64,000 bases of DNA from positions 30,008,001 to 30,072,000 of the forward strand of contig OZ004611.1 in NCBI GenBank assembly GCA_963924565.1, given 5' to 3'. A model generated the notes under the pieces. The model was given only the letters and a program-made list of their open reading frames with translations. It searched no databases and was not told where the DNA came from. Positions within the stretch are counted from its first letter, which is position 1. Each line of letters begins with the position of its first letter. Source of the DNA: Ascidiella aspersa (lineage: Eukaryota). Below are positions 10,217-43,091 of this stretch, piece by piece. The position numbers were made by a program, and so were the translations under genes.

Positions 10217-10403
10217 ATGCGACGCTTAGTGTTAGTAACCTTAAGTGTGGCGATTGTTCTATGCCTTTACATTGCATTGGCCGCCGGCGACAATTGGAAT
10301 TATCGAAAAGAAGCCGCCACGAGATTTCAGCTGAGGACAAACTCCAACTACAACCCACCCGGTGGTTTCCTTGCGGGGGAATACCCCAGCAAACTGCTCC
10401 AAG
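10217..10403 (+). CDS. Protease coding exon 1: signal peptide and propeptide start
   Basis: [27 protein letters not shown]...SKLLQ. Acceptor at 10184/10185, donor AAG|gttggt, phase 1. Confidence 0.85.
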
Positions 10404-40400: not shown

Positions 40401-43091
40401 ATTCGGATTCATGTCTACCTTTGTTTACTATTTACTTAGTTCATAAACAGCGCTATAATTCACGTTAGGTTACACGAAAAGCTTAAGCTGCCTGACTAAC
40501 GGCATAGCACGAAACCTCAAATATCTCTGTAATAAGTTTGAAGTGCTCGACTTGGTAAAAAGCTAGTACGATGGCTTCCTTGGCCACACCCAAAAATTGA
40601 CCTGTAAATAAACTCAACACTGAAATCACAAACAACGGAGTGTACCTCGGACAGCTTACGAATGCCGTTCAGATTTGCCCCGTAAAGCGTAAAAGCAATT
40701 AGTGCCGAAGGTGACAGTCAACAAACGCAAATGCGAAAATGAAATCAGCTGATAACGGTCTATTAGAAGATGTGTGTTTAAAAAGACGACAAGTCGTCCC
40801 CAGGCAAGGCAAAACAGTAGCAGAAGTGTCCTCTCAATATAAGACTGATTTTAATATCTCCAACTTAAAAAGCCGGGCTCCTACGTAAGGGTGCCATTTT
40901 TTAACAGGCAAAATCCTATAAAAACTTATCACAGTTTTGGAAAAACAACTGTAAATGTATTATGGAAGTATATTTCGCTTTAAAGTCATTGAAACCAAAC
41001 AACCCTGTAGACTTTATTGCACTAAACTAGATTGGTCATGGTAAACAATCTCTCACTCATACAAAGTTTTACACTAAAATGCCTGATATGTTTGATATCC
41101 GGATGTATGGCAATTCTTACCTTGGCATATTATACTTTTGGTACGCTCCTAAACATTAAACGGATCGATGGGTTTCGGTGGGTATCCAGATATGACGTCA
41201 CAATGTGTCTATTTGCCACGCCTTTGCGCAAGTTTTCCCGGAACTGATGATGTCGCTCGAGCAAAATTGTTATATTCCTTTAAATATATGTCAAGTACTT
41301 TATTTTAACAGGGTTTTAGTCTTTAATAAAAAAATGAACGACAAATCCGGCTACTGCTAAAAACTCCATCTTTCATTACAAACACATTTTTTAAACAGAT
41401 GACATCGAACTGATCAAACTGCGAAGAGACGTGACCTTCGCCAATAGTCTCCTGCCAGCCTGCTTGCCTCAAGGTCAACTGGCCACGCCCAACGATACCT
41501 GCTACGTCACAGGATGGGGAAAAACCGGTAGGGGATTTTTATATCTATTTTGTGAATAAAGCATTTTTTAGTGTGTTTTGACTGTTCAATACAGGTATAT
41601 GTAAGTTAAGCGAGTAGATTTCTACAAAAAGGTATAAATACATTTACCGATAGTGGGTTACCGTATTTCGTTGCACCCGTGTCTTTATTGCTAAAATAAA
41701 ATGTATAAATTGTCCCTAATATTTACAAGTGACCAATAGTTATGCATTACAAATGCAAACATAACACAATACCAAGGTGACCAGAAGCGAAGCTTTTTTT
41801 AATTTTTGCTTTTTGCCGAGTCAAACTAATCGCTCTATAGCACTGATTCCCAAAACTGTGTGCCGCAGCACAGAGAGATTGCCAAGTGTGCCACGAAACT
41901 TTTTTTAATTTCGAAAAAGAGAGTATTTATATTACCAATAGGCATACACGCAAGCATTTTAGACCTAAATACGCACTACCCATTGCAAATTAATCATATT
42001 GAGACATTTACATATATGTTTTCGCGTGTTAAGCGAGATTGTAAAATGACTCTATTTTGTTCTGTTAAAAGTGTGCCACGAAATAGTTAAGATATTTTTA
42101 GTGTGAGAAAAAAAAAGTTTGGAAACCACTGTTCTGTAGACTAACTACAAAACGACTCGCTTGTTTAATAAGGAAGTTTACAAGGATGCAAGCCGACTGT
42201 TTGTGTCTTCAGAGGCCACCGACTCTGAGCAAGAAATGTTGCTGGAGGGCAAGATGCCAATCATCGACTTCCGCAAATGTGGGAAGCTAGGGGGTCGGTA
42301 CCGCTACTATTACCGCTACTACCTATCTGCGCAGTACCACATGTGCGCAGGTGACCCCAAGCACGCCAAGGTCGACACGTGTGAGGTGAGATTTAAATTT
42401 GAGCGGGAGATCAAAATTTAAATTTTGTATGAATATAATTTTTTATACTTTTTAGATATTCATAATGCTTCTAGGAGCCAAAAAAAAAAATTAAAACGGA
42501 TTGCCTCATTGTCTCTGATTTAAACCGGATTTTGACGTTTTATCGTAATTTTTTACTAACGATTTGCTAACATCTAAATTAAAAAATGAATAAATAAAGC
42601 GAGAATCTCAAAACGTTTATACTTGGAAAAAAGAAAAAAGGAAAAATAGGAAAAAAACTGCTTTTAACTTAAAAGATCGAAAACAACTTATTAATATACA
42701 GAATACTGCTGTCACTTAAAAAAAGCCATCGTAAGTTCTGCTAAAAAATCTGATTCGAATGAAACAAAGGTTAGGCTATTTAACCTCAGGTGACATTTCC
42801 AAGTTAAACGTAGTAGGCTAGGTTCTATTTAAACGAAAAAAAATTGCACACGTCTAAGCACGGCTTACTTGCATTTCAAGGCATTTTTTATCCATGATTT
42901 TAACTTAGGGCGACTCTGGAGGTCCACTGGTTTGTCGACGAACCGACGGACGCTGGTACGTTGCTGGCATCACCTCATTCAGCTTCGTGGCCTGCGGAAC
43001 TCCCCAGCATGTCGGAATCTACGTTCCCGTCGCAAAATTTGAGGCCTGGATAAGGGACGTAATGACCGAATACTCGCACGCCGGATGTTGA
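10217..43091 (+). CDS. Secreted TSP1-repeat (x10) trypsin-family (S1A) serine protease zymogen, 20 coding exons, 1037 aa: join(10217-10403,15114-15231,18735-18953,23272-23464,23990-24161,24620-24713,26426-26530,28549-28692,32294-32328,32789-33061,33720-33899,34287-34498,34875-35015,35475-35586,36136-36293,38040-38176,39051-39199,41399-41527,42213-42385,42909-43091)
   Basis: Exons joined by hand at GT-AG sites. Lengths sum to 3114 nt with consistent phases and no internal stop. Signal peptide, RRKR, ten WxxW..CxxxC..RxRxC..C..C..C repeats, [48 protein letters not shown] at 43089-43091. Confidence 0.9.
13854..13891 (+). ncRNA. Minimal type-I hammerhead ribozyme-like motif
   Basis: TCA-CTGATGA-T-GGCA(8 nt)TGCC-GAAACGTT|TGA, lying in the loop of a perfect 53-bp inverted repeat. 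Confidence 0.6.
15114..15231 (+). CDS. Protease exon 2: furin site and acidic/aromatic segment
   Basis: tttgcag|(D)[38 protein letters not shown](W)|gtaagt. Phase 1 to 2, matching both neighbours. Confidence 0.88.
17479..17720. mobile_element. hAT (Charlie-like) MITE
   Basis: cagtgcttcttaacc...ggttgataaacactg; TSD ccttaaaa/cctttaaa. Confidence 0.75.
18735..18953 (+). CDS. Protease exon 3: TSP1 repeat 1 and start of repeat 2
   Basis: [17 protein letters not shown]...[12 protein letters not shown]...[14 protein letters not shown]; ggcag| and |gtcagc. Confidence 0.93.
20780..21030. repeat. Degenerate 10-bp tandem repeat (YACGCAAACG)
   Basis: Columns of cacgcaaacg/tacgcaaact/tactcaaaca with period 10. 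Confidence 0.85.
23272..23464 (+). CDS. Protease exon 4: TSP1 repeats 2-3
   Basis: [22 protein letters not shown]...[26 protein letters not shown]; ctttag| and |gtagat. Confidence 0.92.
23572..23647 (-). pseudogene. tRNA-like repeat copy in protease intron 4
   Basis: Near-identical to 62455-62529; A box TAGCTCAGTTGG, B box GTTCGAATC. Confidence 0.75.
23990..24161 (+). CDS. Protease exon 5: TSP1 repeats 3-4
   Basis: [20 protein letters not shown]...[13 protein letters not shown]...[12 protein letters not shown]; tttccag| and |gtaaga. Confidence 0.92.
24620..24713 (+). CDS. Protease exon 6: end of TSP1 repeat 4 and linker
   Basis: [31 protein letters not shown]; ctttaaag| and |gtaagt; phase 1 to 2. 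Confidence 0.85.
24777..25036. mobile_element. hAT (Charlie-like) MITE
   Basis: cagtggttctcaa...ttgagaaccactg TIRs; degenerate 8-bp TSD. Confidence 0.75.
26426..26530 (+). CDS. Protease exon 7: TSP1 repeat 5 start
   Basis: [34 protein letters not shown]; tttcag| and |gtaaga. Confidence 0.93.
26570..27165. repeat. Degenerate A-rich tandem repeat (ACCATTTRAAAAGAAA motif)
   Basis: Recurrent accatttgaaaa/accatttaaaa units in intron 7. Confidence 0.8.
28549..28692 (+). CDS. Protease exon 8: TSP1 repeats 5-6
   Basis: [47 protein letters not shown]; tttccag| and |gtacgg. Confidence 0.92.
31994..32041 (-). ncRNA. Minimal type-I hammerhead ribozyme-like motif, U3-A8 core variant
   Basis: Reverse complement reads UCAUUAUG-UUGAAAA-U-GAAUAA(agag)UUAUUC-GAAACGUU|CAAAAUGA. 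Stem I 7/8 bp, stem II 6 bp, palindromic loopless stem III. Confidence 0.6.
32046..32088 (+). ncRNA. Minimal hammerhead-like motif, U3-A8 variant (inverted partner copy)
   Basis: TTGAAAA 32050-32056, GAATAA/TTATTC stem II, GAAACGTT 32074-32081. The 5' strand of stem I is truncated by the inversion. Confidence 0.5.
32294..32328 (+). CDS. Protease exon 9: 35-nt mini-exon
   Basis: ttatcttttttag|(R)[11 protein letters not shown]|gtaaat. It supplies exactly the phase 2 to 1 shift needed between exons 8 and 10. Confidence 0.75.
32789..33061 (+). CDS. Protease exon 10: Ser/Thr/Pro-rich, Cys-free insert
   Basis: aacgcag|(V)[15 protein letters not shown]...TQYPETIE|gtgtga. 273 nt open, GC-richer than flanks, phase 1-1. 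Confidence 0.8.
33720..33899 (+). CDS. Protease exon 11: end of TSP1 repeat 6, start of repeat 7
   Basis: [53 protein letters not shown]; tttgcag| and |gtgagt. Confidence 0.93.
34287..34498 (+). CDS. Protease exon 12: TSP1 repeats 7-8
   Basis: [43 protein letters not shown]...CNTH; tttcag| and |gtaagt. Confidence 0.93.
34875..35015 (+). CDS. Protease exon 13: TSP1 repeat 9
   Basis: [47 protein letters not shown]; phase 0-0. Confidence 0.93.
35340..35379 (+). ncRNA. Minimal type-I hammerhead ribozyme-like motif
   Basis: TTTTAC-CTGATGA-A-GCAC(agtt)GTGC-GAAAGCTT|GTCAAG; stem I 5/6 bp. Mutated relatives at 7373-7412 and ~27540-27585. Confidence 0.6.
35475..35586 (+). CDS. Protease exon 14: TSP1 repeat 10 start
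   Basis: [37 protein letters not shown]; acgcag| and |gtataa. Confidence 0.92.
35600..36113. repeat. 24-bp tandem repeat (about 21 copies, TAAGTTTCTTTAATTACGTCAYGC) filling intron 14
   Basis: Visible periodicity; it explains the 8-aa-repeat ORF 35906-36190. Confidence 0.93.
36136..36293 (+). CDS. Protease exon 15: end of TSP1 repeat 10, activation peptide, R|IVGG
   Basis: [16 protein letters not shown]...FPGCGVRG...AIVR|IVGGN; tttccag| and |gtaagt. Confidence 0.94.
37650..37967. mobile_element. hAT (Charlie-like) MITE
   Basis: cagtggtttccaaac...gtttgggaatccctg; perfect TSD GTCTACAC (37642-37649, 37968-37975). Confidence 0.85.
38040..38176 (+). CDS. Protease exon 16: catalytic His57
   Basis: [15 protein letters not shown]...[22 protein letters not shown]. 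Confidence 0.94.
39051..39199 (+). CDS. Protease exon 17
   Basis: [22 protein letters not shown]...[21 protein letters not shown]; tttcag| and |gtaagt. Confidence 0.92.
41399..41527 (+). CDS. Protease exon 18: catalytic Asp102
   Basis: [24 protein letters not shown]...CYVTGWGKT. Confidence 0.94.
41841..42131. mobile_element. hAT (Charlie-like) MITE
   Basis: cactgattcccaaa...tttggaaaccactg; TSD ctctatag/ttctgtag. Confidence 0.7.
42213..42385 (+). CDS. Protease exon 19: includes S1-pocket Asp189
   Basis: ...[14 protein letters not shown]...RYRYYYRYY...[16 protein letters not shown]|gtgaga. Confidence 0.93.
42909..43091 (+). CDS. Protease exon 20: catalytic Ser195 and stop
   Basis: [60 protein letters not shown]. 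Confidence 0.95.
   Translation, partial: GDSGGPLVCRRTDGRWYVAGITSFSFVACGTPQHVGIYVPVAKFEAWIRDVMTEYSHAGC

Follow-up and report, generated by a model that had tools for sequence, protein, structure and literature searches.

A ten-repeat TSP1 and trypsin-domain gene of Ascidiella aspersa and its tunicate protease family

What does a gene encode when a long series of TSP1 repeats (TSRs) is followed by a trypsin domain, and what could its product do outside the cell? The question is raised by a locus on the forward strand of Ascidiella aspersa contig OZ004611.1, in an analysed stretch of 64,000 nucleotides called the window here. A sequence-only reading of this DNA described a complete, phase-consistent 1037-aa reading frame with ten TSRs and a trypsin domain, regarded the architecture as unusual, and proposed a lineage-specific protease.

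Gene structure and exon support

The locus was rebuilt from the DNA as 20 exons that join in phase to give 3114 nt, equal to 1037 aa and a stop, with GT-AG boundaries at 19/19 introns. This model reproduced the previously read protein exactly. GC content is 54.4% in the CDS versus 34.4% in the introns. In a profile scan, Pfam TSP_1 was above cut-off in 7/19 exon pieces and weak in two more, and Pfam Trypsin was above cut-off in 3/19. The window contains eight copies of a strict TSR-head pattern, whereas 100 base-shuffled versions had 0.01 on average and never more than 1.

All exons are on the plus strand. Exon 1 (10217..10403) carries the ATG, a predicted signal peptide (aa 1-27, the only hydrophobic segment of the protein by hydropathy), and the start of the pro-region, which continues in exon 2 (15114..15231) with the furin-type motif RRKR at 15128-15139 (aa 68-71) and a conserved Cys pair before TSR1. 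A 22-nt form of exon 2 (15210-15231) was discarded because its acceptor scored 0.8, compared with 11.4 for the acceptor at 15114. The heads of the ten TSRs begin at aa 102, 153, 207, 266, 334, 384, 543, 592, 649, and 696. Exon 3 (18735..18953; TSP_1 E 2.3e-7) encodes TSR1 and the TSR2 head, exon 4 (23272..23464) the TSR2 end and TSR3 head, exon 5 (23990..24161) the TSR3 end and a divergent TSR4 head with a weak Pfam match and a positional match in orthologues, exon 6 (24620..24713) the TSR4 end and a spacer, exon 7 (26426..26530; TSP_1 E 6.6e-8) the TSR5 head, and exon 8 (28549..28692) the TSR5 end and the first half of TSR6. After an insert in exons 9 and 10, exon 11 (33720..33899) resumes with the second half of TSR6 and the TSR7 head, followed by exon 12 (34287..34498; TSR7 end, TSR8), exon 13 (34875..35015; TSR9), and exon 14 (35475..35586; TSR10 head and an extra Cys704, codon at 35511).

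Exon 15 (36136..36293) alone combines TSR10's second half with the linker Cys757 of FPGCG (36219) and the activation site Arg776|Ile777 of R776|IVGG (36276-36281); the TSR array and the protease are therefore parts of one gene, as had been claimed. The protease continues through exon 16 (38040..38176; N-terminal part with catalytic His822 at 38160, Pfam Trypsin E 1.7e-11), exon 17 (39051..39199; aligned with orthologues), exon 18 (41399..41527; catalytic Asp878 at 41401 and PACLP Cys898 at 41461, E 9.3e-8), exon 19 (42213..42385; a Tyr-rich loop and S1-pocket Asp974 at 42374), and exon 20 (42909..43091; catalytic Ser980 at 42915, Ser at 216, terminal Cys1037 at 43086, and the stop, E 4.9e-11).

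Exons 9 (uncertain, 32294..32328; acceptor 6.4, donor 9.3) and 10 (5' end uncertain, 32789..33061) are the only weakly backed part of the model. They encode the start and the S/T/P/E-rich remainder of the insert within TSR6. The 32789 acceptor scores -0.3, compared with 5.7-15.9 in 17 anchored acceptors, and a single exon at 32841-33061 suits the phases equally well and gives 1008 aa in all. Exon 9 had neither homology support nor support in one RNA run. Exon 10 is single copy in the genome with a GC content of about 52%, and 32796-33061 is open and free of indels in a second DNA run. Polymorphism showed no sign of constraint on exon 10, where 3/4 changes are non-synonymous compared with 2/5 in exon 11, counts too few to judge. 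Another candidate insert exon (31513-31556) was discarded on its acceptor score of -10.0. The insert is common to ascidian members of the family, at the same place in Clavelina and Styela, and is probably a disordered, glycosylated loop; a second furin-type site in the Clavelina and Styela inserts (RLRR and RQRR) is absent from the window model.

RNA-seq gave no confirmation of the 19 junctions: none was seen in one run over 24500-43600 (exons 6-20) and 32200-34000, with about 6/100 of the run read. Depth was zero in several exon-bearing bins of 24500-43600, and the only reads there were repeat-derived. This absence in one run says little about expression of the gene.

Relatives of the gene in tunicates

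Full-length orthologues with collinear repeats and 37-40% identity were found in three ascidian orders, represented by Clavelina LOC143470063 (390/963 identical positions), Styela LOC144420943 (358/968), and Ciona XP_026694316.1 (346/900). The window TSRs match best to their positional counterparts in 10/10 cases for Clavelina, 8/10 for Styela, and 7/10 for Ciona, and TSR10 has the top score. The collinear ten-TSR array with a split TSR6 is thus shared by the window protein and its orthologues. A secreted zymogen processed in two steps had been proposed, and its anatomy recurs: TSR1 is preceded by a furin-type site in all four full-length ten-TSR proteins (RRKR in the window protein, RHKR in Ciona, RHRR in Clavelina, and RSRR in Styela).

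The Ascidiella aspersa genome contains two close paralogues and also a second TSR+S1 group. One paralogue starts in tandem inside the window, where its predicted exon 1 (61710..61827, plus strand) would encode a signal-like leader in phase with the next exons and its predicted exon 2 (63151..63278, plus strand) carries a furin-type RLRR motif; the exons for its TSRs and protease lie past the window, up to G000:C5:30094730. The other, on C7, matches the window gene in its intron phases around TSR10 and the protease, and a dedicated phase 2-to-1 exon holds the insert within its TSR6 equivalent.

In a tree of protease domains, which left out P0116 and in which P0053 was only 17% filled, the window protein falls in a 20-row tunicate clade that includes Oikopleura g3432 (support 100/99; SH-aLRT 98 after 13 rows were dropped) and in a 12-row ascidian subclade (95/86). 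The tree does not separate one-to-one orthologues within the subclade, and the end branch of the window protein is long (1.21). None of the few vertebrate sequences in the tree falls inside the clade, and no vertebrate protein with both TSP1 and trypsin was present among the matches listed, in agreement with the statement that no vertebrate S1 protease is known to be built on a TSP1 array. Both domains occurred in 1/120 listed rows, the query itself, of a search with the Clavelina protease region that was dominated by multi-protease proteins, and a homologue search with the last exon alone recovered 0/5 candidates. The second ascidian TSR-S1 group is marked by an ShK module and QRCxxCxWY; the window protein does not have this motif and is in the other clade. 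The two groups may share a deeper origin, which is compatible with the tree (support 79), so an independent origin is not claimable.

The label "lineage-specific" applies at tunicate level. The family is widespread in tunicates and has yet to be characterised. A literature search that included six accessions other than Q8T3A3 and CAD24306 returned no paper on the tunicate TSR-S1 clade (0 for the six accessions) and no functional study, and F6SJ02, LOC100179863, and LOC100175030 do not occur in the 11 PMC13225635 supplement files searched. A view of the architecture as unusual or unrecorded is not supported, given the orthologues, the Oikopleura relatives, the two paralogues, the second group, the deposited Ciona sequence Q8T3A3, and published cnidarian and Ciona proteins with both domains.

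Protease domain and predicted chain tethers

Assignment to S1A is based on the triad H822/D878/S980 in AGHC, DIxL, and GDSGG contexts, the zymogen site R776|IVGG, the Pfam Trypsin matches in three exons, the trypsin fold of the orthologue model, and a C1-C122-type pair (C757/C898) whose bond is predicted. All motifs reported earlier are present. With numbering aligned to known trypsin motifs, the S1 pocket has Asp189 and Gly226, and the protein departs from trypsin at Ser216, Phe215, and Glu at 104. Residue 216 is Gly in Styela and both paralogues, Ala in Clavelina, and Ser in Ciona. AlphaFold models of the Ciona and Clavelina orthologues show TSR strands and a trypsin fold, with pLDDT <50 in the insert. 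The best fold matches of the orthologue model are factor XI, kallikrein, and enteropeptidase, with Z up to 32.6, rmsd 2.1, and 250 aligned residues against S1A folds, and an ESM Atlas search returned generic trypsin clusters. In a Pfam scan of exons and orthologues, only TSP_1 and Trypsin were found, with no Gla, kringle, EGF, apple, CUB, or CCP module and no ADAMTS-type reprolysin, disintegrin, Cys-rich, or spacer family.

Nine Cys residues of the protease domain fill the standard S1A bonds and leave the terminal Cys spare. An extra Cys in the last TSR is accompanied by the terminal Cys in 8/26 proteins, all members of the ascidian clade; the two paralogues also have both. Both are absent in 13/26 (Oikopleura-type, with the last head not parsed in one), and the tail Cys is present alone in 5/26, one fragment and four of the other group. 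Co-occurrence follows one branch of the tree and so counts as one event rather than many. On this co-occurrence, Cys704 and Cys1037 likely form a second tether disulfide in ascidian members. The last residues of the Ciona and Clavelina models have pLDDT <50, and Ciona TSR10 (aa 174-230) modelled in complex with the protease domain, without an alignment, gave scores of 0.04 and 0.02, which weigh on neither side. Another extra Cys, Cys401 in the first half of TSR6 (exon 8), is absent from the aligned orthologues.

Proposed function and known counterparts

The favoured reading, held with moderate confidence, is that this 20-exon member of the tunicate family is a secreted S1A zymogen that stays on its arm of ten TSRs once activated and likely cuts extracellular matrix proteins after Arg or Lys. 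The hydropathy profile suggests that the leader is removed upon secretion, after which a furin-like convertase would cut RRKR|F72 and free TSR1. The arm contains 11 WxxW and 8 CxxS/TC motifs, which make C-mannosylation and O-fucosylation probable, and, by analogy with known TSR proteins, would bind matrix or cell-surface partners. The net charge of the TSR region is only +1, so plain electrostatic binding to sulfated glycans is not favoured. Activation of S1A zymogens by a trypsin-like cut is an established mechanism, as is the chymotrypsin C1-C122 bond that links the chains. Here the cut would fall at R776|I777, Cys757-Cys898 would hold the chains together, and Cys704 of TSR10 would probably pair with Cys1037 as a second clamp. 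Asp189 suggests cleavage after Arg or Lys, and Ser216 may narrow the pocket.

A role in a clotting or complement-like cascade, in which the arm would dock on surfaces like properdin during blood or wound responses, is unlikely. It is favoured by the Ciona orthologue fragment Q8T3A3/CAD24306.1, filed as "putative coagulation serine protease", although no test is visible behind this label. A 2003 paper reportedly dealt with sea-squirt coagulation genes. TMPRSS13, factor XI, plasmin, and kallikrein are the nearest among solved sequences and folds, but the factor XI matches are generic (about 31% identity), the few vertebrate sequences in the tree lie outside the clade, and the protein lacks Gla, kringle, CCP, and EGF modules. 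Botryllus rejection libraries contain TSP1 and S1 domains on separate ESTs (PMC2527998). Equally unlikely is a protease whose role is reproductive or limited to one stage, on the sperm surface or egg coat or in hatching or metamorphosis, as a serine-protease parallel to the Tast astacin-TSP1 proteins of sperm. The lack of exon reads fits narrow expression, but it comes from one run of unspecified tissue, of which only the small fraction given above was read. Ascidian sperm employ trypsin-like proteases and TSP1-bearing metalloproteases, according to PMC9265791 and PMC6353882, whereas the gamete S1 proteases described in the former are built otherwise: acrosin/ovochymase with CUB, spermosin, and TTSP-1 with EGF and ricin-B.

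A weak or nearly inactive protease on what is mainly a TSR scaffold is considerably less probable. Ser216, Glu104, and the long end branch would fit it, but the triad, GDSGG, Asp189, Gly226, and R|IVGG are intact, and the Asp, Ser, and oxyanion motif are unchanged across 29 aligned relatives. Least probable of all is a division into two genes, one with TSRs only (exons 1-8) and a shorter one that encodes a protease with four TSRs (exons 11-20). This reading draws on the weak splice support at exons 9-10, on the current Ciona RefSeq, where two models of 422 aa and 519 aa divide the gene at the TSR6 insert, on the 519-aa Ciona entry, whose start is at that place, and on P0398, a naturally occurring four-TSR protein that has a leader of its own. 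However, the break would halve TSR6, the 519-aa entry opens with half a TSR and no leader, the Clavelina, Styela, and older Ciona models are joined, and the paralogue has its insert exon in the same phases.

Within the matrix-protease reading, a more specific version is tentative and rather unlikely: a serine-protease counterpart of ADAMTS for processing of the tunic or house, furin-primed, with the last TSR clamped by Cys704-Cys1037 as a fixed exosite and the TSR6 loop nicked by a convertase in some species without arm release. If the family does remodel the tunic, the sister group of vertebrates would have arrived at a matrix-anchored protease by convergence. The analysis identifies a conserved protease family of tunicates, amenable to knock-out in Ciona, whose members databases mislabel as ADAMTS-, SCO-spondin-, or coagulation-like; the automatic names "ADAMTS adt-1-like", "SCO-spondin", and "coadhesin-like" derive from the TSRs only.

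Among known sequences, Ciona intestinalis LOC100179863 (Q8T3A3/CAD24306.1, 519 aa; full XP_026694316.1, 950 aa) is in the same clade and, like the window protein, has ten TSRs in its full model, a furin-type site, and an additional Cys both in the last TSR and at the terminus. It differs in its 38% identity, short TSR6 insert, K|IFGG, and His215/Ser216. A neighbouring accession is a 7-TSR paralogue, which matches the tandem pair in the window genome; the ten-TSR gene is the likely counterpart, judged by the number of repeats and the order in the tandem. Clavelina lepadiformis LOC143470063 (1004 aa) and Styela clava LOC144420943 (1157 aa), both "uncharacterized", have the same architecture repeat by repeat and both extra Cys, and differ in their shorter inserts and the second furin-type site.

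The TSR and trypsin combination is already known from cnidarians and from a different Ciona gene, so the architecture alone is no surprise to a specialist; the two extra Cys and the insert inside TSR6 of ascidian members are the new features in the sequences compared. In Johnson et al. 2024 (PMC10962819), Ciona KH.L96.43 is a protein that is secreted, combines TSP1 repeats with a trypsin-like domain, and marks basal cells surrounding the larval adhesive papillae. It differs in having 557 aa, four TSR-like repeats with an ShK-like module, D|IVGG, and WPWM, and over its first 400 aa resembles, by eye, the second ascidian group (Styela LOC120346648/LOC120346412). It is not an orthologue of the window gene, and its expression serves as an analogy only. 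Cnidarian ShK-TSR-trypsin proteins, such as Aiptasia Ap_Trypsin-like (PMC5446238; also PMC6767649), likewise have TSRs N-terminal to the trypsin domain. Ap_Trypsin-like differs in its four TSRs and two ShK modules and is likened to the tunicate clade by description only, whereas Acropora TSR-trypsin forms have no ShK, like the window protein.

ADAMTS and the ascidian Tast astacins also combine an extracellular protease with TSRs, and the window protein may work similarly. It differs from both in serine rather than zinc catalysis and in TSRs that precede the catalytic domain, and from ADAMTS in having no disintegrin, Cys-rich, or spacer domain. A furin-type pro-site is a feature of ADAMTS as well.

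A gene joining ten TSP1 repeats to a trypsin-type protease

The window gene is real and well formed. In a six-frame translation, TSP1-repeat (TSR) and trypsin motifs were confined to the interval from 18.7 to 43.1 kb and, within it, to the + strand. With exon ends set from splice signals and phase, the rebuilt 20-exon model (10217-43091, +) gave the same length, 1037 aa, as the open reading frame of an earlier sequence-only reading, and the ten TSR heads, RRKR at 68-71, C757, R776|IVGG, H822, D878, C898, D974, and S980 were found where that reading had placed them. All 19 introns are GT-AG, and the GC content is 54.4% in the coding sequence versus 34.4% in the introns. 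Over 19 exon pieces, Pfam TSP_1 was above the cut-off in seven and Trypsin in three. TSR-pattern matches numbered eight in the window against a maximum of one across 100 shuffles, far beyond chance. Exon 15 (36136-36293) carries IVGG and the linker Cys as well as the last part of TSR10, so the repeats and the catalytic domain come from a single gene, in agreement with the same reading. None of the predicted splice junctions was seen in the single RNA run.

A pyrimidine tract followed by AG lies at 10175-10186, 30 bases upstream of the ATG, and is read as a 5' UTR intron or spliced-leader acceptor. Three tRNA-Ala(GGC)-like copies (23571-23648, -; 49695-49769, +; 62454-62530, -), one within intron 4, are probably a tRNA-derived SINE. 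A 28-bp tandem array of about 77 copies (91% matches) occupies 54521-56669. Intronic tandem arrays have units of 24 bp (35602-36115), 41/82/167 bp (AT-rich, 26564-27165), and 10 bp (20776-21019), and intronic repeats at about 31960-32160 and 33108-33160 draw many RNA and DNA reads from other places in the genome.

The TSR6 insert, spare cysteines, and proposed mechanism

Exons 9-10 (32294-32328 and 32789-33061) encode a 103-aa S/T/P/E-rich insert between Cys 3 and Cys 4 of TSR6. The insert is likely real because the stretch is single-copy, its reading frame is open in a second DNA run, the Clavelina, Styela, and Ciona proteins carry an insert at the same position, and a paralogue on contig C7 has the equivalent on a separate phase 2-to-1 exon. 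Its 5' end is placed provisionally: the acceptor at 32789 is weak, and a single exon starting at 32841 would give a 1008-aa protein with equally good phase. The split TSR6 is a modest new detail. In AlphaFold models of two orthologues (mean pLDDT 75.1 and 60.8), the TSRs form strands, the protease takes a trypsin fold, and the insert is modelled with low confidence. Cys401 (exon 8, 28549-28692), also in TSR6, is an extra Cys missing in the aligned orthologues, and the Cys total after the leader is odd (75); it is possibly a free thiol or dimer link.

TSRs have a characteristic disulfide pattern and glycosylation motifs, and a furin site is known from ADAMTS proteases. The window protein has one hydrophobic leader and no further membrane segment, and a furin-type site precedes TSR1 in all four full-length ten-TSR proteins. 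This anatomy points to a secreted S1A zymogen with a leader, a furin-type site, activation at R776, and a C1-C122 tether (Asp189, Ser216, and C1-C122 are numbered by the trypsin scheme). Two Cys are spare, C704 in TSR10 and C1037, the final residue. Equivalents of both occur in 8 of the 26 proteins examined and in both own-genome paralogues, and both are missing in 13 Oikopleura-type proteins of that set. The simplest reading of this co-occurrence, which counts as one evolutionary event, is that C704 and C1037 would form a second inter-chain bond; this probable disulfide is likewise a modest new detail. Cleavage after Arg/Lys is pointed to because of Asp189, and Ser216 makes this specificity less sure. 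In exon 19 (42213-42385), a Tyr-rich run at about residues 946-960, four residues longer than in orthologues, adjoins Cys168-Cys182 and may shape the S4 site.

Relatives in tunicates and in this genome

The family to which the gene belongs is conserved in tunicates and uncharacterised. The last exons of the window gene and of two own-genome paralogues were combined into a profile, which was run against 1.84 billion proteins. For the window protease domain, the 13 top single matches scored above generic trypsins, and TSP_1 and Trypsin occurred together in 11 of 15 proteins scanned. Named relatives are Clavelina LOC143470063, Styela LOC144420943 and LOC120343189, Ciona savignyi H2YC28, and Oikopleura g3432. 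The Ciona intestinalis cluster includes a 950-aa full model and the 519-aa Q8T3A3/CAD24306.1, filed as 'putative coagulation serine protease'. Orthologues share 37-40% identity with the window protein over 900-968 aligned residues, with collinear repeats. Accordingly, the host is very likely an ascidian. With the C. savignyi protein as query, in a search covering lengths of 284-905 aa that is not a census, both domains were present in 19 of the 120 matches listed (of 655); seven of these are named, all ascidian, and 12 carry no organism. No vertebrate protein with both domains was among those 120.

A tandem paralogue follows 20-44 kb downstream. Its leader exon (61710-61827, +) and RLRR exon (63151-63278, +) lie inside the window; TSR exons and then an intact protease with R|IFGG continue beyond it, up to G000:C5:30094730. 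The compact C7 paralogue (G000:C7:19920990-19927850, -) has K|IIGG, an intact triad, an extra TSR Cys, and a Cys near the C-terminus; a search for its 5' exons found none. Seven-TSR proteins occur in Ciona, Clavelina, and Styela; their contigs have the same length as that of the ten-TSR gene, and their accession numbers lie close to its own, which suggests an old tandem pair. TSR+S1 genes marked by a QRCxxCxWY motif form a second group, at loci L009-L025 on C1 (6.91-6.98, 23.26, 35.18, and 40.36-40.46 Mb) and C6 (21.57 Mb), where S1 proteases are flanked by TSR exon arrays. One locus has more than 25 TSR exons upstream of the protease; with gene limits approximate, some arrays may follow it. 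In a protease tree of 41 rows, the window sequence falls inside a 20-row tunicate clade (support 100/99), which divides into an ascidian branch (95/86) and one that contains Oikopleura (96/87); the second group is separate (98/94). A single origin of this clade and the second group was not rejected by a tree test.

Possible roles and published comparisons

A matrix-anchored role with cleavage after Arg/Lys is moderately favored, its site of action being the least supported step. Work in blood defence appears improbable. Work in reproduction, where sperm proteases and Tast are covered in the available parts of PMC9265791 and PMC6353882, is given the same low likelihood. No study of the clade was found in a literature search made mostly without subscription papers and without accession Q8T3A3. 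The clade is absent from the available parts of PMC2527998, PMC1761132, PMC3927616, PMC3390340, PMC7853314, PMC7401272, and PMC13225635 (for the last, supplements included).

The sequence-only reading had called the architecture unusual. This view is not upheld, as the family is conserved in tunicates and the TSR-trypsin type is already noted in other invertebrates. In the accessible portions of these sources, ShK-TSR-trypsin proteins are reported in five of six symbiotic cnidarians, although the Acropora proteins of this kind lack ShK (PMC5446238); trypsin-TSP_1-ShK proteins are mentioned (PMC6767649); and a honey-bee table legend includes TSP1 among serine-protease domains. In Ciona, KH.L96.43, a secreted protein with TSP1 and a trypsin-like domain, marks cells around the larval papillae; unlike the window gene, it falls, judged by eye, in the second TSR+S1 group and not in the window clade (PMC10962819, as far as its text was available).
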